From Acidobacteriota bacterium (GTDB lineage Bacteria; Acidobacteriota; Thermoanaerobaculia; Gp7-AA8): a stretch of 64,000 nucleotides of DNA. How positions within the stretch are numbered: the stretch's first letter is position 1; the number at the start of each line of letters is the position of its first letter. Shown piece after piece: positions 9,584 through 57,147 of the stretch. The stretch lies in NCBI GenBank assembly GCA_021325515.1, contig JAJPHC010000051.1, positions 27,998 to 91,997 on the forward strand. The letters are read 5' to 3'. The notes beneath the pieces are model-generated. The model did not search any database. It had not been told where the DNA came from and worked only from the letters and a program-made list of their open reading frames with translations. Both the position numbers and the translations under genes were made by a program.

Positions 9584-9593
9584 GCCGGCAATG

Positions 9594-9664
9594 TAGGACA
9601 GGCGCCCTCGCCTGTCCAACCGAACCGACAGGCGAGGCCGACAGGCGAGGGCGCCTGTCGTACA
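9594..9664. repeat. palindromic repeat element, family 2 (GTAGGACAGGCGCCCTCGCCTGTCC ... GACAGGCGAGGGCGCCTGTCGTAC), intergenic copy
   Basis: The two ends are reverse complements of each other and each end is itself a small hairpin. Other copies at 39309-39430 and 43115-43174. Confidence 0.85.
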
Positions 9665-9666
9665 CC

Positions 9667-11091: not shown

Positions 11092-11182
11092 GGTTTCGCG
11101 GTTTCGAGGTCGCGCGGGCTCGCGGTCTCGTGGACCAAAGCCACCGCGAGCCCGCGAGCCCGCGTACCCGCGCCACCAAATC

Positions 11183-25780: not shown

Positions 25781-25790
25781 TTGACCCACC

Positions 25791-25847
25791 AACGTCCTCC
25801 CTCGCCCCCCAACGTCCTCCCTCGCCCCCCATCGTCTCCCTCGCCGC
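25791..25847. repeat. imperfect 20-bp tandem direct repeat x about 2.8 (AACGTCCTCCCTCGCCCCCC)
   Basis: aacgtcctccctcgcccccc / aacgtcctccctcgcccccc / atcgtctccctcgccgc. It sits between the histidine-kinase stop and the MNIO operon promoter region. Confidence 0.6.
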
Positions 25848-28071: not shown

Positions 28072-28163
28072 GCGAACATTCTGATGCCGGCGGACTGGAA
28101 ATGGTTTCGCCCGATTCCACCGCGCGCCCGCGAACCCGCGAGCCCGCGTAACCAGGAGGTCTC

Positions 28164-29138
28164 ATGCACCATCGCAAACTCGGCCAGCTCGAAGTCTCCG
28201 CCATCGGTCTCGGCTGCATGGGGATGTCGGAGTTCTACGGGACTCACAACGATGCGCAGTCGCTCGACACCATTCATCGCGCGCTCGATCTCGGCGTGAA
28301 CTTTCTCGACACGGCAGACATGTACGGGCCGTTCACGAACGAGAAGCTGGTGGGCCGCGCGATCAAAGGGCGCCGCGACTCCGTGATCCTTGCGACGAAG
28401 TTCGGCAACGAGCGGAGGGCGGACGGATCGTGGGTCGGCATCAACGGCCGGCCGGAGTACGTCCGCGCCGCGTGCGATGCCTCGCTGCTGCGGCTCGGCG
28501 TCGATCACATCGATCTCTACTATCAACATCGCGTCGATCCGAAGACGCCGATCGAAGAAACGGCCGGCGCGATGTCCGAGCTCGTTCGCGCGGGCAAGGT
28601 GCGATTCCTCGGTCTCTCCGAGGCGGCACCGAAGACGATCCGCCGCGCGCATGCGATTCATCCCATCACTGCGCTGCAGACTGAATATTCACTCTGGAGC
28701 CGCGAGCCGGAGGATGAGATTCTTCCGACGGTGCGCGAGCTCGGCATCGGGTTCGTCGCCTACAGTCCGATCGGCCGCGGATTTCTCTCCGGCCGCATCA
28801 AGAGCGTCGACGATCTCGAGCCGGATGACTATCGCCGCAACAACCCGCGATTCCAGGGAGAGAACTTCCAGAAGAATCTCGATCTCGTGAAGAAGATCGA
28901 ACAACTCGCGAAGAAGCGCGGCGTCACGCCCGCACAACTCGCGATCGCGTGGGTGCTGTCGCGCGGCGAAGACATCGTCCCGATTCCCGGCAGCCGCCGC
29001 ATCCCGCATCTCGAGGAGAACATCGCGGCGGTGAACATCACATTGACGCGCGAAGAGCTGAGGCAGATCGACGACGCGGCGCCCGCCGGCGCGGCGGTGG
29101 GAGATCGCTACCCCGACATGTCGCGCGTGAATCTCTAA
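28164..29138 (+). CDS. aldo/keto reductase family oxidoreductase
   Basis: 324 aa. [22 protein letters not shown] and KVRFLGLSE are canonical AKR motifs. Confidence 0.85.
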
Positions 29139-33831: not shown

Positions 33832-35171
33832 CCGGACGGATTCTGCTCGTCGACGACGAAGACGTTTTCCGCGAAGACATCGCGTCATTGCTGCGGCACG
33901 AAGGCTACGTGTGCGAGGCCGCGGCTTCCGGCGCCGAAGCGCTGCGCATTGCACAGAGCGAGGCACCCGACATCATCCTGTCCGACATGGTGATGCCCGG
34001 GATCTCCGGCGCGGAGCTCGTGCGCACACTCGCAGCGGCATGTCCGGAGACGCCGATCGTGGTGATCACCGCGCATGCGACAGTGGAGACGACCGTCGAG
34101 GCCTTTCGCGCCGGTGCGACCGACTATCTCCTCAAGCCGCTAGTCATCGACGATCTCATTCGCAAGGTCGAGCGCTGCCTCGAGCATCGCCGGCTGCAGG
34201 CCGAGCTGCGCTTTCTGCGCAAGCAGGTCTCGCTCGCCGGAGGAGGCACGACGATCGTCGGCACGAGCCGGCCGATCCAGGCCGTGCGCGACCTGATCGC
34301 GCGCGTCGGCCCGTCGAACAGCAGCGTGTTGATCACCGGAGAGAGCGGCACCGGGAAGGAGCTCGTCGCGCGGGCGCTGCATGCTGCCGGCAGCAACGAG
34401 CGCGCGCCGTTCATCGCGGTGAACTGCGCCGCATTGCCGCGAGATCTCATCGAGAGCGAGCTGTTCGGGCACATGCGCGGCGCATTCACCGGAGCGATGC
34501 GCGACAAGCGCGGACTGTTCGAGCTTGCCAACGGCGGCACGCTCTTTCTCGATGAGCTCTGCGAGCTGCCGGTCGAGCTGCAGCCCAAGCTGCTGCGCGC
34601 GATCGAACAGCAGGAGATCCTGCCCGTCGGCGGGACGCGCGTCATCCGGACGAACGTGCGCATCATCGCGGCGACGAATCGCGTCCTGCGCGATGAGATC
34701 GCAACACGGCGCTTCCGCGAGGATCTCTATTTCCGGATTGCGGTCGTGGAGATCGCACTGCCGCCGCTGCGCGACCGACGCGAAGACATCCCGATGCTCG
34801 CCGACTTCCTCATCGCGCGCTTGAATGACCGCCTGAAGCGCCGCGTGAACGGCGTCGCCCACTCCGCGCTCCGCGTGCTGATGAGTGCACCGTGGCGCGG
34901 CAACGTGCGCGAACTGGAGAACGTGCTCGAGCGCGCGATGCTGCTGACGAACAACGAGATCATCGGCATCGAGGATCTCCCCGCCGAGCTGGCCGGCACA
35001 CTCGCGACGAGCGACCCCTCCGACGATCTGCGCAACGCCGTCCGAGCCTACGAACGGGAACACATCCGCCACGTGCTCGCAACGACGAACGGCAATCGCG
35101 AGGAAGCATCCCGAAGGCTCGGCATCGACGCCTCAACCCTCTACCGAAGAATGCGCGACCTCGCCCTTTAA
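33828..35171 (+). CDS. sigma-54-dependent response regulator (NtrC family: REC, AAA+ sigma54-activator, Fis-type HTH)
   Basis: LLVDDE receiver; GESGTGKE Walker A; GAFTGA sigma54-contact motif; ELFGH; C-terminal HTH ..NGNREEASRRLGI..TLYRRM. The stop TAA overlaps the first T of repeat copy C. Confidence 0.9.
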   Translation: MTGRILLVDDEDVFREDIASLLRHEGYVCEAAASGAEALRIAQSEAPDIILSDMVMPGISGAELVRTLAAACPETPIVVITAHATVETTVEAFRAGATDYLLKPLVIDDLIRKVERCLEHRRLQAELRFLRKQVSLAGGGTTIVGTSRPIQAVRDLIARVGPSNSSVLITGESGTGKELVARALHAAGSNERAPFIAVNCAALPRDLIESELFGHMRGAFTGAMRDKRGLFELANGGTLFLDELCELPVELQPKLLRAIEQQEILPVGGTRVIRTNVRIIAATNRVLRDEIATRRFREDLYFRIAVVEIALPPLRDRREDIPMLADFLIARLNDRLKRRVNGVAHSALRVLMSAPWRGNVRELENVLERAMLLTNNEIIGIEDLPAELAGTLATSDPSDDLRNAVRAYEREHIRHVLATTNGNREEASRRLGIDASTLYRRMRDLAL

Positions 35172-35209
35172 GTTGGTTTTCGGGGGTCACACCTGGAAAA
35201 TCAACTTAA
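35168..35209. repeat. 42-bp palindromic element family 1, copy C
   Basis: TTAAGTTGGTTTTCG-GGGGTCACACCT-GGAAAATCAACTTAA; same orientation as copy A. Confidence 0.9.
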
Positions 35210-35241
35210 CGGCGGACAGACAGGCAGGCAGAAGGCACCCG

Positions 35242-35283
35242 TTAAGTTGATTTTCCAGGTGTGACCCCCGAAAACCAACTTAA
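35242..35283. repeat. 42-bp palindromic element family 1, copy D
   Basis: TTAAGTTGATTTTCC-AGGTGTGACCCCC-GAAAACCAACTTAA; identical to copy B. Copies C and D are separated by only a 32-bp spacer with no cargo. Confidence 0.9.
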
Positions 35284-35989: not shown

Positions 35990-36454
35990 ATGGAAGCCTT
36001 CGATCGCTCGATGAATCGCCGCACACTGCTCAACTGGTTTCTCGGCACGTCGTTCGGCGCGCTGATCGCGTCGGTGATCTACCCCGTGCTGCGGTACATG
36101 ACTCCACCGAAGATCGCCGAGGCGAGCACGAATCAGGTCGAAGCCGGCGAAGTGAATGATCCCGCGCTGCTCGACAAGGGCTACAAGATCATCCGCTTCG
36201 GCGCGGAGCCGGTGATTCTCGTCAAGGCCGCGGAAAACGATTTCCGCGCTTTCTCCGCGACGTGCACGCATCTCGACTGCATCGTCGGCTTCCAGAAGGA
36301 CCAGACGCGCATCTACTGCAACTGCCACGGCGGCTGCTACGACCTCACAGGCCGCAATGTCTCCGGTCCGCCGCCGCGGCCTCTCACTCCCTACAAAGTC
36401 AATGTCGTCTCGAAGGGCTCGGGTCCGGGCCTGATCGTCGTATCGAAGGCGTAA
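35990..36454 (+). CDS. Rieske [2Fe-2S] iron-sulfur protein (bc/b6f-type)
   Basis: GAGG 8 nt before the ATG; twin-arginine-like [13 protein letters not shown]; cluster boxes CTHLDC...CNCHGGCY. The track start at 35975 is a GTG overlapping the upstream stop. Confidence 0.85.
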
Positions 36455-36456
36455 TC

Positions 36457-39231
36457 ATGAGCGCAATCTTTGAGTGGCTCGATGACCGGCTCGGCGTCTC
36501 CGTCCTGCGCGAGGTCGCATCACACAAGACCGTACCCTCGCATCGCTACACCATCCTCTACTACCTCGGCGGCATGACGCTCTTCTTCTTCCTCGTCCAG
36601 GTCTGCACCGGCGTTCTGCTGATGCTCTATTACAGACCGTCGGCCGAAGAAGCCTTCGAGTCGGTGGAGTTCATCATGACCACAGTGCCGTTCGGATGGC
36701 TCATCCGCAGCGTGCACTCCTGGTCTGCCAATCTCATGGTGTTCTTCGCCTTCCTCCATCTCGTGAGCGTCTTCTTCATGAAGGCGTACCGGCCGCCGCG
36801 CGAAGTCACCTGGATCAGCGGCGTCATCGTGCTCTTCCTCGTCATGGGCTTCGGCTTCTCCGGCTATCTGCTGCCGTGGAATCAGCTCGCGTTCTTCGCG
36901 ACGAAAGTCGGCACGGACATCGCCGGCGTCGTCCCGCTCGTCGGCCCATGGATGGTGCGCTTCCTCCGCGGTGGTGATCGGGTGAGCGGCGCGACTCTTT
37001 CGCGCTTCTACGGCTGGCACGTCGCGATCCTTCCCGCGATCACGACCGTCATCCTCGGATTGCATCTCGCGATGGTGCAGCTCAAAGGGATGAGCGTGCC
37101 GAAGTCGATCGAGGACGATGCGAATTCGCGCAAGCCGATGAAGTTCTTCCCCCACTTCGCACTGCGCGATCTCACCGGATGGATCATCGCCCTCGGCTTC
37201 GTCGCCGCACTCGCCGCCCTCTTCCCCTGGGAGCTCGGCGACAAGGCTGATCTCTTCGCGCCCGCCTACGAGAACATCCGCCCCGAGTGGTACTTCGTCT
37301 TCATGTTCCAGACGCTGAAGCTCGTGCCCGGCGGCTCCATCGCCGGCATCGAGTACGAGGCGATTCCGATCATGCTGTTCAGCCTCGCCGGCGCTCTGCT
37401 GATGGCTGTCCCCTTCCTCGACCGCAGACTCAAGCGCGATGGAAAGAGCCCGCTCTTCACCACGATCGGCGTGCTCGCCATCCTCTTCATCGTCGGCATG
37501 ACGTGCTGGGGCTACGGCAACATCGTGCCGCTGCTGGTCATGGCGCTCGCCGCATCGCTGCTCGTCCTGCTCGGATGGATCACGAGGCCTCCGCGCGCGA
37601 TGATGATGATCGCGCTGCTGTTCCTCGCCGCACACGCCTGGGGCGCGACGCCGAAGACGTCGTGCACCACCTGCCACAACAGCGAACTATTCGATGCCGC
37701 CGGCAAAGCGAAGGTGACTTCGTTCCTCACGAAGGACGTGCATGCGCAGATCGGCCTCTCCTGTCACGATTGTCACGGCGGCAATCCCGATCCTGCACTG
37801 AGCACCGATCCGGCTGCCGCCATGGATCCCAATTACAAGAAGAACCCGTTCCGCGGAATGCCGGCGCGCAAGGACATTCCCGACTTCTGCGGCCGCTGCC
37901 ACTCCAGCGCGGCCTTCATGAAGCAGTACAACCCGGCCGCGCGCGTCGATCAGGTCAGTGAGTACTGGACGAGCCGCCACGGCCAGCTTCTCAAGCAGGG
38001 CGATACGAATGTCGCGGTCTGCATCGACTGCCATTCCGTGCACGACATCCGCCGCAGGATCTCACCCGACTCGCCCGTCTACAAGACGAAGGTTGCGGAG
38101 ACCTGCAGCCGCTGCCACTCCGACGCGAACAGGATGGCGAAGTACGGCATCCCCACCGATCAGTACGCGCGCTGGCGCGTGAGTGTGCACGCCAATGCGG
38201 TGCTCAACAAGGGCGACATCGCAGCGCCTAGCTGCAACGACTGTCACGGCAATCATGGAGCGACACCTCCCGGCGTCGAGTCGATCAGCTTCGTCTGCGG
38301 ACGCTGTCACGCGCGCGAAGCGGAACTGTTCCGCAAGAGCCCGAAGTACGACGCCTGGCAGAAGCACAACGAGATGATGAACGGGATGGCGTGCTCCACG
38401 TGTCATGCCGACGGCAAGCGCGCCAGCGTCACCGTGACGCACTTCAGCGAATGCCTCACCTGCCACGAGAATCACGGCGTCGTCCGTCCGACGATCGCCC
38501 TGCTCGGCAATCTGCCGGAAACACCCTGCGCGTTCTGTCATGAAGGCGTCGGCCCGCTCGCCGCACGCATCGCGGAGATGCCGGAAAAGGCCGAGCACTT
38601 CAAACAAGTGCGCGACAGCTTCCTCAAGGTTGCCGATGCCCAGCATCTGAAAGGCAATGACCGTTTCGACTGGCTGGTTGACCAGGCGCTGCACCTCCCC
38701 TTCCATCGCGTCGGCGACGCGAAGCAGAACGACAAACTGCGTCCCGAGTTCCTACGGCTCTTCGACAAGTTCCGCATCGGCAAGACGCACTACGTCTACA
38801 AGGATGTGAAAGGGAACGACGTCTCGGTACCGGTCCGCAGTTGTGGCGACTGTCATGAAGAAAAGGATTCCGCCGGCCTGGCGAATGCGCGCGCGTATCT
38901 CGATGCCACGCGCAGCGTGACCAGCATGGTCGGACGCGCCGATCGCATCCTGCTCTCCGCGCATCGCGGCGGTGTCGAAGTGCGCAAGGTACGCGCCGAG
39001 CTCGATGGAGCCATCGACTCCCAGATCGAGCTCGAGACGCTGGTGCACACGTTCAACGCGCCTGAGGTGCAGGCCAAACAGAAAGAAGGACTGCAGCACG
39101 CCGAGGCGGCGCTGGTCGCCGGACAATCGGCGCTCGACGAGTTGCTGTATCGCCGCAAAGGATTGTTGATCGCGCTCGGAATCATCCTTCTGGTTCTCGT
39201 CGCGCTGATCACGAAGATCAGGACGTTGTAG
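36457..39231 (+). CDS. cytochrome b (b6 plus subunit-IV-like, 8+ TM) fused to a C-terminal multiheme (11 x CxxCH) cytochrome c domain
   Basis: The N-terminal about 420 aa has the cytochrome b His ligands and the PEWY motif ([14 protein letters not shown]). The C-terminal about 500 aa carries CTTCH, CHDCH, CGRCH, CIDCH, CSRCH, CNDCH, CGRCH, CSTCH, CLTCH, CAFCH and CGDCH, plus a final TM anchor. The track start at 36262 is artefact; the ATG at 36457 follows the Rieske stop. Confidence 0.85.
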
Positions 39232-40848
39232 ATGAGCGAAGCCGAGCTCGAGCTGCGCGTTCAGCGCCTCGAGACCGCGCTGGCGGAGCTGACGCGCCGC
39301 GTAGACGGTGTAGGACAGGCGCCCTCGCCTGTCCACGCGCCCTCGCCTGTCCACGCGCCCTCGCCTGTCCAGGCGCCCTCGCTCCACTTCGACACGGATG
39401 CCGCGGGACAGGCGGAGGCGCCTGTCCTACAGGACTCCCCTGACTGGCTCACCCTGGCCGGCTTCTCCGTCCTCATCTTCGGCGGTGCGTATCTTCTCCG
39501 CGCCTTCACGGAGTCGGGCGTGCTGCCGCCGGTCGGCGGTGTCATCGCCGGTGCGGTGTACGCGCTCATCTGGATCTGGATCGCCGATCGCAAGCATGCG
39601 GTCTACCTCGCCGCGACCGCGGCCGCAATCGCGTTCCCGCTCGTGTGGGAGACGACGGCGCGCTTCCACTACGTGACGCCGGCGGCCGGCGGCTTCCTCG
39701 CGGCGATCATCGGCGTGATCCTCATCTTCGTCGCCTGGCACAACAGCAAGGAAGCGATCGCGTGGATTGCCAGCATCGGCTCGATCGCCGTCACGATCGC
39801 GATCGTCAAGCCGGACGCGATGCTGCCGCTCATGATCGCCGGCAGCGTCGTCGGCGCGGCAACGCTGCACGTCGCCATCCTGATGCGATGGAAGTTCGTC
39901 GCGCTCCCCGCCGCGGTCATGACCAACGCGCTTGCGTCGATGACCATCGGCATCCCGATTCTCCGCGGCGGCTTCGAGCGCCCCGGCGAAACGATCGCGG
40001 CGCTCATCGGCTTCGCCGCAGTCTGGCTCGCGACGATCTGCTATCGCCGCATTCATTACAACGAGCACCTCTCCTTCTTCGACATCATCGAGAGTGCGCT
40101 ACTGCTCTTCATCGGCGTCGGCGGCGCGGCCTTCGTCGCCGGACTGACGCATCGCTATGGCGTCATCGTCGCAACGATCTATGTGATCGCCGCGGTCGCC
40201 GCGTATCTCGAGGCGTCGAGAAAAGACGGCATGCGCACGTGGCTCACCTCGGTCGCGCTCTATCTGATCTGGCTGGCGATGCTGATCGCGCTCGAGCTGC
40301 GCGCGGCCGCCGTCATCGCTGCGATTCTCGGCGTCGCTTCGGCGGAATTCGGACGCCGCCTGCAATGGCCGGCACTCGCCGCGCAGAGCGTCCTCTGGAT
40401 CGCCGGCGCCTTCCTGATCGGCGGCTTCTCCGGCCCCGTCGCCATTCTGATCTCCGCCTGCATCCTGATCGCGTGCCTGCGTGTGCACCTGCCGCTCGCT
40501 CACACTCTGCTGCTCGCGCTCTTCGCCGTTTCGCTCTTCCTGCTTGCCGGACATGATCGCGGCGCACTCGTCCGCACGCTTCTGCTCGCCGCCTTCGCAG
40601 CAATCCTCGGATTCGGCTCGAAATACACGCATGCGGCGATTCCGGTCGCTCGCCTCCTGCTCGTCGCAGGTGGATTGAAATTACTCGCAGAGGATGTCCG
40701 CACCGAGCGCGCGGCCATCCTCGTTATCTCCTTTGCTGCCTATGGGTTCGCCATGCTCGCCGTCGCGAGATGTGCGCGCCGTCACACCACTTCGCCACTT
40801 GAGTCACAAAGAACCCCCCTCACTGACACATTAAGTAGCAATCGCTAA
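39232..40848 (+). CDS. DUF2339-like polytopic membrane protein with N-terminal coiled-coil
   Basis: MSEAELELRVQRLETALAELTRR coiled coil, then about 14 TM helices. Contains an in-frame copy of palindromic element family 2 in the linker. Confidence 0.55.
   Translation: MSEAELELRVQRLETALAELTRRVDGVGQAPSPVHAPSPVHAPSPVQAPSLHFDTDAAGQAEAPVLQDSPDWLTLAGFSVLIFGGAYLLRAFTESGVLPPVGGVIAGAVYALIWIWIADRKHAVYLAATAAAIAFPLVWETTARFHYVTPAAGGFLAAIIGVILIFVAWHNSKEAIAWIASIGSIAVTIAIVKPDAMLPLMIAGSVVGAATLHVAILMRWKFVALPAAVMTNALASMTIGIPILRGGFERPGETIAALIGFAAVWLATICYRRIHYNEHLSFFDIIESALLLFIGVGGAAFVAGLTHRYGVIVATIYVIAAVAAYLEASRKDGMRTWLTSVALYLIWLAMLIALELRAAAVIAAILGVASAEFGRRLQWPALAAQSVLWIAGAFLIGGFSGPVAILISACILIACLRVHLPLAHTLLLALFAVSLFLLAGHDRGALVRTLLLAAFAAILGFGSKYTHAAIPVARLLLVAGGLKLLAEDVRTERAAILVISFAAYGFAMLAVARCARRHTTSPLESQRTPLTDTLSSNR
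39309..39430. repeat. palindromic repeat element family 2, expanded copy (internal 18-bp unit ACGCGCCCTCGCCTGTCC x3) inside a CDS
   Basis: It translates in frame as VGQAPSPVHAPSPVHAPSPVQAPSLHFDTDAAGQAEAPVLQ. The ends are GTAGGACAGGCG... and ...GCCTGTCCTAC. Confidence 0.8.
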
Positions 40849-40898
40849 CTCCAGACTGTGACCGCTGAAATGGGATTTGAACTCGAAGGAGACAAGCA

Positions 40899-43049
40899 AT
40901 GACACGACTTCACCGCGGCCTGATCCTCATCGCGCTTATGGCCGTCATCTCGCTGCCGATGTTCGCGGCGACGCGCGGACGCGCCGCCGGTTCGCCTGCG
41001 AATCCGGCCACGCCAACGGCAGCGGCATTCCCGCCGACTGCGAAAGAGGCATACCTCACCGATGACACGCTCGCGTATATCCGTCCCGGCCTCAAGGTGA
41101 AGCTCAACTCCGTCGCGGTCGGCACGGACGGCAAGGTCAACGTCGATCTCTCGATCACCGACGACTTCGATCAGCCGATCGATCGCCTCGGGAAAACGAC
41201 GCCGGGCGCAGTCTCCATCAGCTACATCCTCGCCTGGTACAGCCCCACGACCCGCCAGTACACCGCGTACACCACGCGTGTACAAACGACTCCCGCCACG
41301 AGTCCGCATCCCGGCGTCAGCGCAACTCAGGCAGGAACCGATTCCGGCGGCACCACCACCGATCTCGAAACCGGCCATGTGAAGTACCTCTTCAAGACGG
41401 TGCTTCCCACCGGCTTCGACGGCACCAGGACGCACACACTCGGCATCTATGCCTCGCGCAACATGACCGATACGATCGGCAAGATCTATTACGCGAACGT
41501 CGAGTACGACTTCCGTCCCGATGGCAACAAGGTCACGGACGTATGGGACAAGGTCAATCTCGCCACGAGCTGCAACAACTGCCACGATCCCCTTTCCGCA
41601 CATGGCGGTGCGCGCCGCGATCCGAAACTGTGCGCGCTCTGCCACTCTCCGCAGACCATCGATCCCGACACCGGCAACACGGTCGATTTCAAGGTGATGA
41701 TCCACAAGATCCATCAGGGCGCGACTCTGCCGAGCGTGAAGGCCGGAACGCCGTATCAGATCATCGGCTTCGGCCAGAACGTCCTGGACTTCTCCAAGGT
41801 CGCGCTTCCGCCGGGACAGGACACTCGCAATTGCGCCTTCTGCCATGTCGGCAGCGATCCGACGAAGAAGCCCGCACAGAACGACGTCTGGCTGACCAAG
41901 CCGTCGCGCGATGCATGCGGTTCCTGCCACGACGACATCGACTGGGCCACAGGCAAGAATCACGTCGGCGGCCTTCAGAAGGATGACAGCGCGTGCGCCA
42001 GTTGCCACGTTCCGGACAGCGGGAAGGAATTCGACGCGTCCATCAAGGGCGGCCACGTTCTTCCGGTTGCCTCCAAGCAGCTCAAGGGCATCACCGCCAC
42101 GATCACCAAGGTCGTGAATGCGGCACCCGGCAAGAAACCGACGGTGACCATCGCCGTCAAGAACGGCGACGGCACGCCGGTCGACGGCAGCAAGCTGACG
42201 ACCTTCGCGCCGATCATGGCCGGCCCAACCACGAGCTACACCAAGTACTTCCGCGAGAGCGGCATCGCATCCGCCACGAACACGAACGTCGCGACCTACG
42301 ACGCGGCCACCGGCCTCACCTCGTTCACGTTCGCCAACGCGATCCCCGCCGATCAGACCGGCACATGGGCCTTCACTGCAGACATCTATCGCAACGTCAC
42401 ACTGAAGCAGAACAATGACAAGGCCGATCTGACGCAGCGCGAAGCGGCGTTCAACAACATCGTCTACATCCCGATCACCGGCACGACGGCGACGCCGCGC
42501 CGCACCTCGGTCATCCTGTCCCAGTGCAACAGCTGCCACAATGCGCTCGCACTGCACGGCGGCCAGCGCCAGAACACGCAGGAATGCGCCATCTGCCACA
42601 ACCCCACGAACAATGACGTTGCACAGCGCCCGGCGAGCGAAGGGCAGCCGGAGTCGATCTCCTTCCAGCGTCTCATCCATCGCATCCACAAGGGCGGAGA
42701 GTTGACGCAGGACTTCACCGTCTACGGCAATAACAAGTCCCGCCACAACTACAACGACGTGGAGTATCCGGGAGACATCAACCATTGCGCGAAGTGCCAC
42801 ACGTCGACCTCGTACCAGCTGCCGCTGGCGACGGGCATCGACTCCGTGACGACACTCCGCGATTACTATTCGCCGCAAGGCCCCGCGACCGCTGCGTGCC
42901 TTGGCTGCCACGACAATCGTGACGCCGCGGCGCACGCGTTCCTCAATACGGCAACGTTCCCCGGCCAGCCCACTACCCCGGCCGAAGCGTGCGCAACGTG
43001 CCACGGTGCTGGTAAGGACTGGGCGGTCGACAAGGTGCACGCCCAGTAA
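40899..43049 (+). CDS. MtrC/OmcA-like outer-surface decaheme c-type cytochrome (10 x CxxCH, beta-rich inserts)
   Basis: GGAG before the ATG; signal peptide; CNNCH, CALCH, CAFCH, CGSCH, CASCH, CNSCH, CAICH, CAKCH, CLGCH, CATCH in 716 aa. Thr/Gly-rich beta-type segments lie between the haem clusters. The antisense ORF 40845-43229 is artefact. Confidence 0.7.
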   Translation: MTRLHRGLILIALMAVISLPMFAATRGRAAGSPANPATPTAAAFPPTAKEAYLTDDTLAYIRPGLKVKLNSVAVGTDGKVNVDLSITDDFDQPIDRLGKTTPGAVSISYILAWYSPTTRQYTAYTTRVQTTPATSPHPGVSATQAGTDSGGTTTDLETGHVKYLFKTVLPTGFDGTRTHTLGIYASRNMTDTIGKIYYANVEYDFRPDGNKVTDVWDKVNLATSCNNCHDPLSAHGGARRDPKLCALCHSPQTIDPDTGNTVDFKVMIHKIHQGATLPSVKAGTPYQIIGFGQNVLDFSKVALPPGQDTRNCAFCHVGSDPTKKPAQNDVWLTKPSRDACGSCHDDIDWATGKNHVGGLQKDDSACASCHVPDSGKEFDASIKGGHVLPVASKQLKGITATITKVVNAAPGKKPTVTIAVKNGDGTPVDGSKLTTFAPIMAGPTTSYTKYFRESGIASATNTNVATYDAATGLTSFTFANAIPADQTGTWAFTADIYRNVTLKQNNDKADLTQREAAFNNIVYIPITGTTATPRRTSVILSQCNSCHNALALHGGQRQNTQECAICHNPTNNDVAQRPASEGQPESISFQRLIHRIHKGGELTQDFTVYGNNKSRHNYNDVEYPGDINHCAKCHTSTSYQLPLATGIDSVTTLRDYYSPQGPATAACLGCHDNRDAAAHAFLNTATFPGQPTTPAEACATCHGAGKDWAVDKVHAQ

Positions 43050-43060
43050 GGGAGGCGGCG

Positions 43061-44026
43061 ATGCGAATCGAATTTGCTTGGGTCCGCGGGCTCGAGGGCC
43101 CGCGGGCTCCCGGTGTAGGACAGGCGCCCTCGCCTGTCCAATCCGCCAGTGGCAGGCGGGGGCGCCTGTCGTACACATTGCTCTTCCTGATCGTTCTGAG
43201 TGTTCCGTTGCTTGCCCAGGAGGCGGCAACGGTTCCCTCCTGCGGCGATTGTCACGACGAACAGGCCAAGGCCTTCATCACCAATCCCCACGGTCACGGC
43301 AAAGCTGTCAATGGTGTGATTCCCAATGCCGTCTGCGAAAAGTGCCATGGCGACGGCAAGGGCCACATCGAAGGCGGCGGCGACAAGAGTCTCATCTACA
43401 AACCGGCCGGAATGGCAGGCTCGAACAAGACCTGCCTTACCTGCCACGACCTCAATAACGATCGCGTGTCGCGTCATGCCGGCACTCATGCGAACTCTCC
43501 GGCGGTGAACTGCCTCACCTGTCATTCGGTTCACTCCGCGAAAGCATCACCGCTGCTCGTCAAGAAGCAGCTCGAGCTCTGTGCGAACTGCCACGCGACT
43601 CAGGTCGCCTCCTTCCGCGACAAGCCCTACGCGCATCGCCTCGGCCGCGGCGGCATGGAGTGCAGTTCCTGTCACGAGCCGCACGGACGTCCGCAGCGCG
43701 AGATGCTGCGCAAGACCACGGCGGGCGAGCTCCCCTGCGTTGGCTGCCACGTGCAGCAGCGCGGGCCATTCGTCTTCCAGCACGGCTCCGCGGCGATCGG
43801 CGACTGCATGACGTGCCATGAGCCGCACGGCTCTGCGAATCCGAAGCGCCTCATTCGCGCGACGGTCACGCAGCTCTGCATCGAGTGCCATTCGCCCATC
43901 GAAGGCAACACACTCGGCTCACAGCCGCCGGCGTTCCACAACCTCTCTCTGTCGCGCTACCAGAGCTGCACGACCTGCCATACCGCGGTCCACGGCTCCA
44001 ATCGCGACCCGCAGTTGTTCAAATGA
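43061..44026 (+). CDS. MtrA/DmsE-like periplasmic decaheme c-type cytochrome (10 x CxxCH in 321 aa)
   Basis: GGAGG 6 nt before the ATG. CGDCH, CEKCH, CLTCH, CLTCH, CANCH, CSSCH, CVGCH, CMTCH, CIECH, CTTCH. The size and haem density match MtrA. The signal-peptide n-region is interrupted by a family-2 palindromic element. Confidence 0.75.
   Translation: MRIEFAWVRGLEGPRAPGVGQAPSPVQSASGRRGRLSYTLLFLIVLSVPLLAQEAATVPSCGDCHDEQAKAFITNPHGHGKAVNGVIPNAVCEKCHGDGKGHIEGGGDKSLIYKPAGMAGSNKTCLTCHDLNNDRVSRHAGTHANSPAVNCLTCHSVHSAKASPLLVKKQLELCANCHATQVASFRDKPYAHRLGRGGMECSSCHEPHGRPQREMLRKTTAGELPCVGCHVQQRGPFVFQHGSAAIGDCMTCHEPHGSANPKRLIRATVTQLCIECHSPIEGNTLGSQPPAFHNLSLSRYQSCTTCHTAVHGSNRDPQLFK
43115..43174. repeat. 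palindromic repeat element family 2, short copy, in-frame inside the MtrA-like signal peptide
   Basis: GTAGGACAGGCGCCCTCGCCTGTCCAATCCGCCAGTGGCAGGCGGGGGCGCCTGTCGTAC, translated VGQAPSPVQSASGRRGRLSYT immediately before the hydrophobic core LLFLIVLSVPLLA. Confidence 0.8.
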
Positions 44027-44038
44027 AGGAGTGAGACG

Positions 44039-45901
44039 ATGACCATCAGAAGAATCTTCGCGCTCCTCCTCTTCACCGCTGCAACGGCCGGTCAGGCACA
44101 AGTGGCGCCCTGGGACTTCGAAGCCGGCTATCGCTGGCTCAATCTCAAAGGCAGCCCCGGGATGTATCGCACGCAGGTCAACGAGCGCGAGGGATTTCTC
44201 ATCCGTAGTTTCAACCTCGCGACCACCGGACCCAACATGGACCGGCTCGTCGTTCACGTCAGCGATTTCGGCACGAGTCCCGCCGGCTCGCTCCGCCTCG
44301 AGGCCTGCAAGCAGGATCTCTATCGCTTCACTCTCGGCTACCGCTCCGCGGATCAGTACTCCATCTTCTTCGGCCAGCATTACTACAACCGTGCACGGCG
44401 CACCCTCGACGCGGATCTCGAGCTCTTCCCCGAGTCGCGCATCGCGCCCTACGTCGGCTACTCCTTCAACCGCTTTGCAGGTCCCGGCGAAACCACGTAT
44501 CACTTCGGCCAGGATGAATTTCTGCTGCAGCAGAAGCAGAAGGATATCGATCAGGAAGTGCGCGTCGGTGCGAGCTTCAAGTACGACTGGGTGTACGGCA
44601 GCTTCACACAAGGGTGGCGGCGTGCACACAGCACGATCGACTCCTCGCTCTTCCCCGGTGCCGGCAACGGCAACAACAACGATCCCATCCTCGGCCAGCC
44701 GGTCAACGCGACCTCGATCACGCGCCACGACACGGAAAAGACGAAGACTCCCTTCACCAATCTCTACGTCACGCTGCAACCGCTCTCGCGCGGCCGCGTG
44801 ATCGCGAATTACGTTCATCTCTCCGCAGACTCGGATGGCAATGAGAGCGAGGCGGCCTACGGCAGCTTCGCCTCGTTCGCCATCAGCCGCTTCTTCACAG
44901 GCGCGACGGAAACCGCGACATCGCACGCGAAAAACACCACGTGGCGCAGCGGCGTTCGCGGTGAGTACACCATCGCCGAGGGTGTGGATGCCTTCGCCGG
45001 ATATCAGAAGGACCATCGCGATCTCAACGGCAGCGCGCTGATCGATACGCTGTATCTGCAGAGCATCACGTTCGGCGGCGTCGACCAGCGCGACTTCCGC
45101 GACATCCTCGCCTCCGAGAACTCGATTGAGCGCGAGGAGACGACGACCAGTGCCGGCGTTTCCGTCCGCAATCTCGGCAACCTCGCAGTGCGCGCCGAAT
45201 TCCGCCAGGCGAAAGTCGAAGCGGATGTCGCACCCGATCTCTCCGAGATCGTCGTCCCCGGAAATCAGGAAGGCTCGTTCGAGCGGCGCATCAACACACT
45301 CGACACCAACGCGCAGTACGCAACGCACGGCTGGCTCCTCGGCGCTGCCTGGCGCAGCGACAGTGCGAATCAGCCGATCTTCCGCACTGATTACAAGGAC
45401 CGCGACCGCTATCGCCTGCGCGCGCAATGGTCGCAGTTCAAGTGGGCGAAGATCACCTCCGTCTACGAGCGCACGACGATGTCGAATGACACCTCGTTCG
45501 AAAGCCGCGTCCGCAACTACACGACCGACGCCGCGATCATGCCCACGGAAGGCATTACGCTGCACGCCTCGGTGTCATCCTTCAAGAGCGACAGTACGAT
45601 CTCGTATCGCCGCCCGCAGACCTTCGTCGTCACGACCTCCGTCCACAGCGAGAACGGTCACACGCGCGAAGGCGGCATCGGCTTCGCGCTGCCGCACTCC
45701 ATCTACTTCGATGCGAACATCGCACGGCTGCACAATGACGGCACGTACCCGTTCAAGCTCAACCGCTACAACGGCCGGATGACGTTCCCCTTGAAGTCGC
45801 ATTACGGCCTCGCCGTCGAATACAACAAGGACCGCTACGTGGAGTCGAGCTCACTCGATTACGACGCCACGCGCTGGGGCCTCTTCCTTCGGATTCAGTA
45901 G
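44039..45901 (+). CDS. large outer-membrane beta-barrel protein, MtrB/PioB-like porin partner of the decaheme pair
   Basis: GGAGTGAG before the ATG; signal peptide MTIRRIFALLLFTAATAGQAQ; 620 aa of alternating Y/F/W-rich amphipathic strands; positioned directly after the MtrA-like gene, as in mtrCAB. Confidence 0.55.
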   Translation: MTIRRIFALLLFTAATAGQAQVAPWDFEAGYRWLNLKGSPGMYRTQVNEREGFLIRSFNLATTGPNMDRLVVHVSDFGTSPAGSLRLEACKQDLYRFTLGYRSADQYSIFFGQHYYNRARRTLDADLELFPESRIAPYVGYSFNRFAGPGETTYHFGQDEFLLQQKQKDIDQEVRVGASFKYDWVYGSFTQGWRRAHSTIDSSLFPGAGNGNNNDPILGQPVNATSITRHDTEKTKTPFTNLYVTLQPLSRGRVIANYVHLSADSDGNESEAAYGSFASFAISRFFTGATETATSHAKNTTWRSGVRGEYTIAEGVDAFAGYQKDHRDLNGSALIDTLYLQSITFGGVDQRDFRDILASENSIEREETTTSAGVSVRNLGNLAVRAEFRQAKVEADVAPDLSEIVVPGNQEGSFERRINTLDTNAQYATHGWLLGAAWRSDSANQPIFRTDYKDRDRYRLRAQWSQFKWAKITSVYERTTMSNDTSFESRVRNYTTDAAIMPTEGITLHASVSSFKSDSTISYRRPQTFVVTTSVHSENGHTREGGIGFALPHSIYFDANIARLHNDGTYPFKLNRYNGRMTFPLKSHYGLAVEYNKDRYVESSSLDYDATRWGLFLRIQ

Positions 45902-57016: not shown

Positions 57017-57147
57017 CAAAAGCGAAATGCAGAATTCAGAATCACAGAATTCAGAATGAAGAATGGAAGCTCGAACAGTGCAGCGGGCGTGTCATTCCAT
57101 TCTTCATTCTGAATTCTGTGATTCTGAATTCTGAATTTTGCTTTTCG
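57017..57147. repeat. long perfect hairpin of tandem heptamers (CAGAATN)n: arms 57030-57068 and 57095-57133 are exact reverse complements (39 bp), 26-nt loop
   Basis: cagaattcagaatcacagaattcagaatgaagaatggaa ... ttccattcttcattctgaattctgtgattctgaattctg. It lies in the 300-bp divergent intergenic region between the ABC ATPase gene and ppk2. Confidence 0.9.

Follow-up and report, generated by a model that had tools for sequence, protein, structure and literature searches.

Our analysis of a 64-kb stretch of acidobacterial DNA (hereafter the window, meaning the whole of that stretch) revealed that the palindrome in the leader of an mtrA-like decahaem cytochrome gene consists of two inverted units of a GTAG-type repetitive extragenic palindrome (REP), a doublet that resembles REPINs or BIMEs. 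The family to which it belongs is dispersed across Thermoanaerobaculia-type Acidobacteriota, and the in-frame reading of its copies as protein is widespread in these bacteria. We propose, with good confidence, the following account: a REP doublet mobilised by a RAYT transposase settled in the leader of the cytochrome, where it is read through and nearly neutral, and the copies in other genes are survivors that kept the frame.

The mtrA-like gene and its insert

The features on which the argument rests are these:

9591-9665, unstranded: intergenic REP doublet of the same family as 43113-43176, with a 13-nt internal duplication at 9625-9650
39308-39432, plus strand: in-frame REP doublet in the N-terminal linker of a 538-aa membrane protein (39232-40848)
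40899-43049, plus strand: OmcA/MtrC-family decahaem cytochrome gene (TIGR03507, 486.9 bits)
43050-43055, plus strand: ribosome-binding site GGGAGG, 5 nt before ATG 43061
43061-44026, plus strand: intact DmsE/MtrA-family decahaem cytochrome gene, with ten CXXCH motifs in its translation
43080-43111, plus strand: octamer-repeat hairpin CGCGGGCT CGAGGGCC CGCGGGCT, about codons 7-17, the second component of the insert
43113-43176: REP doublet, an inverted pair of a 27-nt unit made of GT, GTAG and a 9-bp stem with a 4-nt loop
43113-43139, plus strand: 5' REP unit, GT, GTAG and the hairpin GGACAGGCG-CCCT-CGCCTGTCC; codons 18-26, translated (G)VGQAPSPV
43140-43151, plus strand: doublet spacer AATCCGCCAGTG, strongly diverged from that of the related locus L001
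43152-43176, minus strand: 3' REP unit, inverted, reverse complement GTGTACGACAGGCGCCCCCGCCTGC; plus-strand codons 31-39, GRRGRLSYT
43178-43216, plus strand: hydrophobic core LLFLIVLSVPLLA, residues 40-52 of the open reading frame 43061-44026
43241-43255, plus strand: first CXXCH of the cytochrome

The host cytochrome matches TIGR03508 at 211.5 bits (cut-off 192.2), with the match beginning at residue 60, and its residues 59-315 align to 6r2q_A. The stop codon of the OmcA/MtrC-family gene lies 11 nt from its ATG, and the ribosome-binding site follows immediately upon that stop (TAA, 43047-43049); the synteny of the two genes is kept in loci L001, L003, L005, L006 and L007. As had been noticed from the sequence, the strong ribosome-binding site before ATG 43061 is followed by a hydrophobic core only from about residue 40. 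The leader is predicted to be a Sec signal peptide with an extended n-region of 39 residues (6 Arg and 2 Glu), then the core, then cleavage at A/QEA. Tat export through the RRGRL motif was rejected on reasoning alone, since the hydrophobic positions after RR are missing and c-type multihaem cytochromes mature after Sec export.

The palindrome had been placed at 43115-43174, where the sequence is indeed as described; an inverted-repeat scan sets its arms at 43113-43136 and 43153-43176, and the unit reaches 2 nt further 5' to take in the GT before GTAG. The codons between the start and the core had been called an exact copy of the palindrome. This is true of residues 19-39 (VGQAPSPVQSASGRRGRLSYT), but the insert as a whole is larger, spanning codons 6-39 and including the octamer-repeat hairpin. 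Because the octamer family recurs in the window at 11092-11172 and 28120-28153, an origin of the array through local slippage of native TCGGGGGA is less likely.

The string GTAGGACAGGCGCCC occurs six times in the window, as three inverted pairs, against 0.1 expected by chance, and the window thus holds three REP elements. The intergenic copy already noted at 9594-9664 is present, with arms at 9592-9616 and 9640-9664; on one side of it a BtpA-family gene starts on the minus strand, and on the other lies the ATG (9682) of a 469-aa open reading frame that reads like CysS. The expanded copy noted at 39309-39430 (arms 39309-39334 and 39406-39431) likewise exists and lies in the same reading frame, translated VGQAPSPV(HAPSPV)x2...GQAEAPVLQ, its first arm being expanded by an 18-nt tandem array at 39319-39382 (3.6 copies, 97% match). 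Its host had been labelled DUF2339; the 538-aa protein has no Pfam match at E up to 0.1 and no NCBIfam match, so we rejected that label as unsupported. Across the three copies the arms are 92-96% complementary, all are headed by GTAG, with GTAC in two distal arms, and as single-stranded DNA they fold at -31, -33 and -45 kcal/mol (z from -7.9 to -9.3). The REP unit measures 25-27 nt, and a lone unit from L006 folds at -11.2 kcal/mol (z = -4.6).

Dispersal of the REP family and its frame within genes

The figures for the family come from scans of sequence collections and metagenomes, and the counts cover copies among the matches listed. At least 120 stretches were found in the metagenome scan, and in assembly GCA_964552405.1 (prefix CAZKID01) copies lie on more than 12 separate contigs among the matches listed. 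The GT-GTAG head is well conserved in the 131 copies among those listed, with T at position -1 in 96% and G at position -2 in 82%; in a pattern search that left out the head, the CCCT-loop type among the matches listed also carried GTAG. Stem variants with compensatory changes occur as GGACAGCCG/CGGCTGTCC and GGGCAGGCG/CGCCTGCC. The same 131 listed copies comprise 69 doublets and 62 singles. Doublets measure anything between 50 and 121 nt, so that it may not be the doublet that replicates as a unit.

RAYT candidates were first found with an E. coli YafM sequence as probe and then verified by NCBIfam and Pfam. Two genes, at 8151-8609 of L202 and 1335-1796 of L235, match NF047646 at 99.4 and 104.4 bits (cut-off 80), and each is flanked, heads outward, by exact or near-exact copies of the window REP; both are on metagenome contigs of uncertain kinship to the window organism. 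In L099, a RAYT-like gene is bordered by REPs of a sister type. The window itself yielded no RAYT gene to tblastn with the L099 protein. A further candidate, L055, gave a weak tblastn match unsupported by the open reading frames there and was dropped. It is almost certain that the REP owes its mobility to a RAYT, an IS200-like tyrosine transposase of the HUH/Y1 type, acting in trans.

Copies inside genes are frequent. By a purpose-made GC3/ORF criterion that demands at least 50 codons on each side, 28 of the 122 assessable copies among those listed (about 23%) are intragenic, the other 94 being outside confident open reading frames. In L005, L006 and L007, REPs of the window type occupy a second in-frame site, in the mature cytochrome between haem motifs 1 and 2. 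Others of this type interrupt RecG, MetH, a ClpA-like protein and a class-V aminotransferase, and sister types are found within MutS, RtcB and a short-chain dehydrogenase. Pfam domains are matched on both sides of the copy in RecG, the ClpA-like protein, MetH, MutS and RtcB, and in the aminotransferase and the dehydrogenase the copy comes after the single matched domain. The frame that reads VGQAPSPV is used at 24 of 29 distinct sites among those listed (p = 7e-13 against one in five open frames), and within one orientation it leads by 24 to 2 (p = 5e-6).

Fate of the insert in the cytochrome leader

The orthologues P0003-P0013 (75-78% identical) start with MRxxxIGGxLLLLIAL and lack the element, so that the alignment called for by the original prediction has a clear outcome. 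Relative to them the insert extends over about 43076-43177 with a net gain of 90 nt, or 30 codons; 34 extra codons separate MRxxx from the core in the window and 31 in L001, whose assembly is 86% identical in DNA. At the DNA level L003 and L004 present an empty site that keeps ATG-CGA, the ribosome-binding site GGGAG(G/A) and the stop before it, the binding site being GGGAGG in the window and L001 and GGGAGA in L003 and L004. The length differences, which the original prediction wanted checked for multiples of three, are all whole codons, and the only indels that set the insert of the window apart from that of L001 are three of 3 nt each. Comparison of filled and empty sites indicates a replacement-like loss of a few native codons and no target-site duplication, a combination for which, to our knowledge, no known RAYT mechanism accounts. 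Judging from six orthologous loci that share the stop, the 11-nt stop-to-ATG spacing, the ribosome-binding site and ATG-CGA, ATG 43061 is the ancestral start; we infer that the insert is translated from it in frame.

We propose the following sequence of events. The RAYT would act on single-stranded DNA, where it would recognise the hairpin together with its GTAG head. In a common ancestor of the window and L001/L002 organisms, the octamer-repeat hairpin and the REP doublet would have come to separate the hydrophobic core of the Sec signal from the short n-region, MRxxx, with about four codons replaced. Initiation would stay at ATG 43061, ribosomes passing both hairpins, and the second REP arm would supply RRGR right before the core of the lengthened n-region. 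If signal peptidase cuts off the entire inserted segment, the mature cytochrome would stay as it was, and the cell would bear the insertion at almost no cost or gain. Elsewhere, most intragenic insertions are presumably purged, and the survivors would be those that keep the frame and encode the harmless Gly/Pro/Ser/Ala-rich VGQAPSPV in linkers, loops and cleaved leaders.

It is conceivable, though in our judgement unlikely, that the hairpins, besides being translated, have been co-opted as an RNA control element within the mtrC-mtrA-porin operon, either shielding an mtrC-ending transcript from 3' exonucleases or slowing early mtrA elongation; either route would set the ratio of the two cytochromes. 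The RNA of 43040-43200 is predicted to fold at -98.1 kcal/mol (z = -6.5), with the ribosome-binding site GGGAGG paired against CUCUUCC at 43181-43187, the insertion has been kept across 14% DNA divergence, and REPs in enterobacteria stabilise upstream mRNA and modulate translation (reviewed in PMC3733652). Yet close orthologues function without the insert, its spacer and octamer part have changed more quickly than the coding sequence on either side (77.5% versus 86% identity), and translating ribosomes would melt the hairpins. The doublet lacks a terminator-like T-run, and a scan of 42700-43500 found neither promoter nor terminator, so it is not an intrinsic terminator. No Rfam family reached its gathering score anywhere in the window, with only sub-threshold chance hairpins in 42950-43300. 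The presence of the same REP family in unrelated genes argues for passive tolerance.

We consider it quite unlikely that REPs and RAYTs serve to furnish proteins with short linkers, loops and leaders in a specific frame, through a mechanistic bias rather than through selection alone. Such a bias would have to cover hot spots (mtrA site 2), the replacement of native codons and the single reading frame. If it existed, the doublet in the mtrA-like leader would be functional, for example with RRGR as a working n-region or in setting the MtrC:MtrA ratio.

The original prediction had itself raised the possibility that translation starts downstream, from TTG 43178, which would make the doublet an untranslated hairpin between mtrC and mtrA. 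This in-frame TTG sits exactly where the hydrophobic core begins, and in Pseudomonas, Citrobacter and Stenotrophomonas most REPs at annotated 5' ends have been judged non-coding, with the caution that REPs in annotated N-termini are often extragenic and misannotated (PMC3733652). We nevertheless regard a displaced start as very unlikely. In L001, which carries the insertion too, the corresponding codon is CTG, and from its ATG as far as the first CXXCH there is no other ATG, GTG or TTG in frame. Initiation at TTG 43178 would yield a signal peptide without a charged n-region, and the sole purine-rich stretch upstream of it falls within the 3' arm of the hairpin. The ancestral ATG and its GGGAG(G/A) have been kept together with insert indels that are all multiples of three, and the same REP cannot escape translation where it lies within the mature part of orthologues or within other genes. 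Finally, the notion that no mobile element is involved, the insert being native to the protein, a product of convergence or an artefact of assembly, for which little can be said except that Pro/Ala/Ser-rich linkers are common, is already effectively refuted by the identical 25-nt DNA in intergenic, coding and RAYT-flanking copies, by the occurrence of the insert in GCA_016853205.1 and GCA_964552405.1, two assemblies independent of each other and of that of the window, and by the empty sites.

Implications and relation to known systems

What is the relevance of a REP that is read as protein? For annotation, long N-terminal extensions and odd VGQAPSPV-type segments in these genomes are genuine in-frame REP insertions, not necessarily wrong starts, and should not be taken for novel domains. 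For the evolution of selfish DNA, the family offers a clean, well-sampled case outside Rickettsia of a presumably RAYT-driven palindrome within essential and respiratory genes, with a measurable filter (roughly one in four to five copies among those listed lies inside a gene, with a strong preference for one frame). Different lineages have gained copies at the same codon, and the family can thus serve to study how proteins absorb selfish DNA. In the extracellular electron-transfer cluster itself, no effect on the mature MtrA-type cytochrome is expected, but the 39-residue leader and the two strong hairpins deserve attention in the design of expression constructs.

GTAG-tagged REPs and their RAYT transposases were reportedly described by Nunvar et al. 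in 2010. The family described here resembles such systems in its GTAG head, its short, GC-rich, imperfect palindrome, its occurrence as singles and inverted dimers, and the flanking of RAYT genes by the repeats, seen here in the metagenome contigs L202 and L235. Intragenic GTAG REPs have been known since 2013, when Di Nocera et al. reported that a minority lie wholly inside open reading frames, often in DNA-repair genes and at N-termini (PMC3733652). The view that in-frame palindromes are uncommon outside Rickettsia needs qualifying, in-frame GTAG REPs having already been documented there. Unlike the families in that paper and its supplements, from which the GGACAGGCG stem family and Thermoanaerobaculia-type hosts are absent, ours has an unusually high intragenic share among the listed assessable copies and one dominant reading frame, a property that PMC3733652 did not analyse. 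A search of the accessible literature did not find the GGACAGGCG family, DNA and peptide motif strings giving unrelated primer matches.

REPINs were defined as doublets of fixed architecture that lie outside genes and are copied whole (Bertels and Rainey 2011, PMC3116915). Our doublets share with them the long hairpin formed by two inverted REPs and a RAYT, single-copy in REPINs, as the presumed mobiliser; they differ in that the spacer varies, half of the listed copies are single and many are intragenic.

Bacterial MITEs duplicate their target site, and their terminal inverted repeats stem from insertion sequences of the DDE type. Those of the Correia/NEMIS, ERIC and RUP types resemble the REPs described here in being small, non-autonomous and built of inverted repeats, and in that they can reach into the ends of genes and fold into hairpins in RNA, whereas our insert has no target-site duplication and its partner enzyme is a Y1 HUH transposase. 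The Rickettsia palindromic elements (RPE), said to occur in frame within functional genes (Ogata et al. 2000 and 2002), differ in host, an obligate intracellular alphaproteobacterium, and, for RPE-1, in their greater length (about 100-150 bp); we know of no established association of RPE-1 with a RAYT, and kinship in sequence with our family is not expected. The likeness is one of behaviour only: both are in-frame, palindromic selfish DNA with one preferred frame, tolerated in the loops and termini of proteins.

A RAYT-associated REP doublet

The palindrome originally reported in the leader of an MtrA-like cytochrome gene is borne out by a 15-mer count, an inverted-repeat scan and folding. The window contains six occurrences of the 15-mer GTAGGACAGGCGCCC, arranged in three inverted pairs, where 0.1 would be expected by chance, and the scan found arms of 24–26 nt, 92–96% complementary, at 9592-9664, 39309-39431 and 43113-43176. 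Folded as single-stranded DNA, the three elements reach -31, -33 and -45 kcal/mol (z-scores -7.9 to -9.3). Every arm is its own hairpin, GGACAGGCG / CCCT / CGCCTGTCC, with GTAG 5' of it, the leader copy reading GTGTAGGACAGGCGCCCTCGCCTGTCC - AATCCGCCAGTG - GCAGGCGGGGGCGCCTGTCGTACAC; the copy at 39308-39432 also holds an 18-nt tandem array (3.6 copies, 97% match).

A scan for the bare hairpin with its head unspecified, in one genome per species, found among the matches listed the GTAG-headed, CCCT-loop type of repetitive extragenic palindrome (REP) in several MAGs labelled Thermoanaerobaculia and on more than a dozen contigs of the assembly that also holds L002, an orthologous locus sharing the insertion; sister types with other heads and loops appeared, again among the matches listed, in Bryobacteraceae and other Acidobacteriota. 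Where the stem varies, the changes are compensatory (GGACAGCCG/CGGCTGTCC and GGGCAGGCG/CGCCTGCC), as expected if the hairpin is the recognised feature. Scanning metagenomes with the exact 24-mer returned at least 120 stretches; in the 131 copies examined the unit is two bases longer at its 5' end (GT), and these copies comprise 69 inverted doublets of variable length (50–121 nt) and 62 singles. Two metagenome contigs (L202, L235) have genes of 153–154 aa that score above the curated cut-off (99.4 and 104.4 bits against 80) of NF047646, the family of REP-associated tyrosine transposases (RAYTs). This REP stands on each side of both genes in exact or near-exact form, heads outward, the arrangement by which GTAG REPs and their RAYTs are defined. 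We conclude that the element at 43113-43176 is a RAYT-associated GTAG REP doublet. No RAYT gene was found in the 64-kb window; on contig L099 a RAYT-like gene lies between copies of a sister REP type.

A RAYT gene on contig L117 (215-862; NF047646, 99.7 bits) is itself split, with its frame kept, by a tandem NCPTQAKVGLEWAT repeat that seems to belong to a further family. An orthologous intergenic REP doublet of the family under study adjoins a HisKA_3 kinase gene in three related loci (L003 16111-16174, L005 16125-16177, L006 15131-15194); single copies can therefore persist across lineages 88–94% identical in DNA. The window also holds three further long palindromic elements (at 57018-57145 with 51-nt arms made of CAGAATT heptamers, at 35168-35283 with perfect arms of 45 nt, and at 1659-1777 with inverted arrays of the heptamer AAATTGA) and a 20-nt tandem repeat, CCCCCCAACGTCCTCCCTCG, at 25785-25845 (3.1 copies, 92% match).

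The insertion in the cytochrome leader

The host gene lies in a cluster that resembles a bc-type complex joined to a porin-cytochrome conduit, in Thermoanaerobaculia-like Acidobacteriota.

36262-45901, conserved cluster: cytochrome b-multihaem fusion (989-aa ORF), 538-aa membrane protein, MtrC/OmcA type, DmsE/MtrA type, 620-aa probable porin
40899-43049, upstream gene: OmcA/MtrC-family decahaem cytochrome (TIGR03507, 486.9 bits)
43061-44026, host gene: ten CXXCH motifs; above the NCBIfam cut-off for DmsE-family decahaem c-type cytochromes (TIGR03508, 211.5 against 192.2 bits), the match beginning at residue 60
43080-43111, octamer-repeat hairpin, second component of the insert beside the REP doublet: CGCGGGCT-CGAGGGCC-CGCGGGCT

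Chain 6r2q_A aligns with residues 59-315 of the host ORF; this chain, aligning as decahaem MtrA, carries the PDB molecule label 'Cystathionine beta-synthase', probably a naming error. The 620-aa ORF downstream, in the porin's position, has no family match in Pfam or NCBIfam, and neither has the 538-aa ORF with the second coding copy, for which the label 'DUF2339' is therefore unsupported. Cytochrome c and Rieske genes stand upstream of the cluster in related loci. The leader translation first given is exact (residues 19-39), and the hydrophobic core LLFLIVLSVPLLA follows directly at residues 40-52.

Protein search recovered close relatives of the cytochrome, some of them named Acidobacteriota. 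In the alignment, orthologues P0003-P0013 (75–78% identity) begin MRxxxIGGxLLLLIALGVP; the window, P0001 (99%) and P0002 (87%) are longer by 32–34 residues, which separate MRxxx from the hydrophobic core. The DNA was compared with six orthologous loci. Five loci assembled without frameshifts share the gene order cytochrome c, Rieske, cytochrome b-multihaem, membrane protein, MtrC type, MtrA type and porin-position gene; in the L006 assembly the cytochrome b and membrane-protein genes are fragmented, and the short L007 contig covers the last part of the cluster only. The MtrC-type stop and MtrA-type ATG are 10–11 nt apart, and TAA-GGGAG(G/A)-CG(G/T)CG-ATG-CGA is kept in filled and empty loci alike. 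Two loci, L003 and L004, show a clean gap where the window and L001 have the insert, which puts 34 codons in place of about four, a net gain of 90 nt. Window and L001, 86% identical in DNA over the mature coding part, differ within the insert by three 3-nt indels, so that the frame is preserved.

An assembly artefact is excluded, since three independent assemblies carry the insert. A true start downstream of the palindrome, for instance at TTG 43178, is unlikely: that codon is CTG in L001, where in-frame ATG, GTG and TTG are all absent between its ATG and the first CXXCH, and a downstream start is therefore unavailable in the insertion-sharing lineage. Judged from the sequence comparison, the REP doublet in the leader is thus an insertion relative to the orthologues, with the ancestral start retained and the frame maintained across 14% DNA divergence. 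The original prediction of an in-frame palindromic insertion is supported by the empty sites (with the short leaders of P0003-P0013), the conserved start and the kept frame, length differences being in multiples of three as it had proposed to check. It had also equated the insert with the palindrome exactly; the REP doublet is present, but the insert is composite and includes the octamer-repeat hairpin as well. The tandem octamers (CGCGGGCT / AGCCCGCG) form a second small repeat family, with one piece in the cytochrome insert (43080-43107) and others at 11092-11172, as inverted arrays 3' of a CysS-like ORF, and at 28120-28153, a short way 5' of the ATG at 28164 and its ribosome-binding site.

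Recurrent in-frame copies

A second REP site in the cytochrome gene (mtrA site 2) lies between haem motifs 1 and 2. Three loci carry the REP in frame there: L005 and L007 have doublets, that of L007 with a long spacer, and L006 has one unit, its stem compensated; the ancestral HG(T/K)AVxGV is kept in L003 and the other orthologues. An element here cannot lie outside coding sequence. The tree of the loci is ((L003 empty, L006), L005), L007, and with L003 empty it requires either that the element was gained twice or more at one nucleotide position or that alleles were exchanged.

Copies inside other genes, from a census using a GC3/ORF criterion, and palindromes at the 538-aa-protein site
RecG, residue 354; Pfam domains both sides
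ClpA-like ATPase, linker joining its two AAA modules; Pfam domains both sides
MetH, between pterin-binding and B12 cap domains; Pfam domains both sides
Class-V aminotransferase; 3' of the single matched Pfam domain
A giant protein
MutS and RtcB, sister REP types; Pfam domains both sides
Short-chain dehydrogenase, sister REP type; 3' of the single matched Pfam domain
538-aa-protein site, different palindrome: L001 6220-6357 (GTAG-headed), L003 6481-6594, L005 6442-6554; window, GGACAGGCG doublet

Against the solved structure 1gm5, the REP region of RecG is a local surplus of five residues. Of the 122 copies that could be assessed in the metagenome sample, 28 sit within confident ORFs, 50 codons or more from either end. 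With orthologous duplicates removed by eye, 29 distinct coding sites remain, and 24 of them read GTA GGA CAG GCG CCC TCG CCT GTC, or VGQAPSPV (p = 7e-13 for a chance of one in five open frames); the TAG of GTAG closes one forward frame, and the same-orientation frames split 24 to 2 (p = 5e-6). The palindromes of L001, L003 and L005 at the site of the window doublet in the 538-aa protein belong to a different family (stem CCTTCTCCCC/GGGGAGAAGG), and that of L001 is in frame and likewise read from GTA, which points to the linker of this membrane protein as a hot spot with element turnover.

Possible consequences and known systems

Translation from 43061 would run through both hairpins and give the pre-protein an n-region of 39 residues (6 Arg, 2 Glu), in which the RRGR encoded by the second arm would adjoin the hydrophobic core. 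Signal peptidase would cut the leader off after ...PLLA and leave the mature cytochrome unchanged, and hence the site, like linkers and loops, may let selfish DNA persist. Selection is the simplest explanation of the frame bias: VGQAPSPV is small and flexible, and the other frames yield Cys-containing or Arg-rich peptides.

The RNA of 43040-43200 is predicted to fold at -98.1 kcal/mol (z = -6.5), with the ribosome-binding site GGGAGG (43050-43055) paired to CUCUUCC (43181-43187) in the Leu-rich core codons; in this fold the two hairpins bring the partners together. Insert-free orthologues have CUCCUCC about 30 nt 3' of the ATG. A regulatory side effect of the hairpins is conceivable but unsupported; against it, no terminator or promoter was found in 42700-43500, and the window gave no Rfam match at gathering scores.

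Rickettsia RPEs, cited in PMC3733652, are the classic functional analogue. The closest structural concept to this doublet is the REPIN (PMC3116915), although the variable spacing and frequent singles fit its strict definition poorly; target-site duplication is absent, which excludes a MITE. REPs tagged with GTAG or CGTC were defined by Di Nocera et al. 2013 (PMC3733652), who linked the former to RAYTs. In several species, with the largest number in Opitutus terrae, they described REPs lying entirely within ORFs, often of DNA-repair genes, and they cautioned that N-terminal cases are often misannotated starts; reading frames were outside their analysis. The original view that in-frame palindromes are uncommon outside Rickettsia must accordingly be revised, the phenomenon being not rare among GTAG REPs (PMC3733652). 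The present sequence family is absent from PMC3733652 and its supplements, as it is from the searchable literature. At its coding sites a few native codons seem to have been exchanged for the element, and mtrA site 2 has been hit repeatedly. The system is of interest chiefly because so large a share of copies is intragenic, one frame is so strongly favoured, a single gene has been struck more than once, and a copy has landed, unusually, in a signal peptide.
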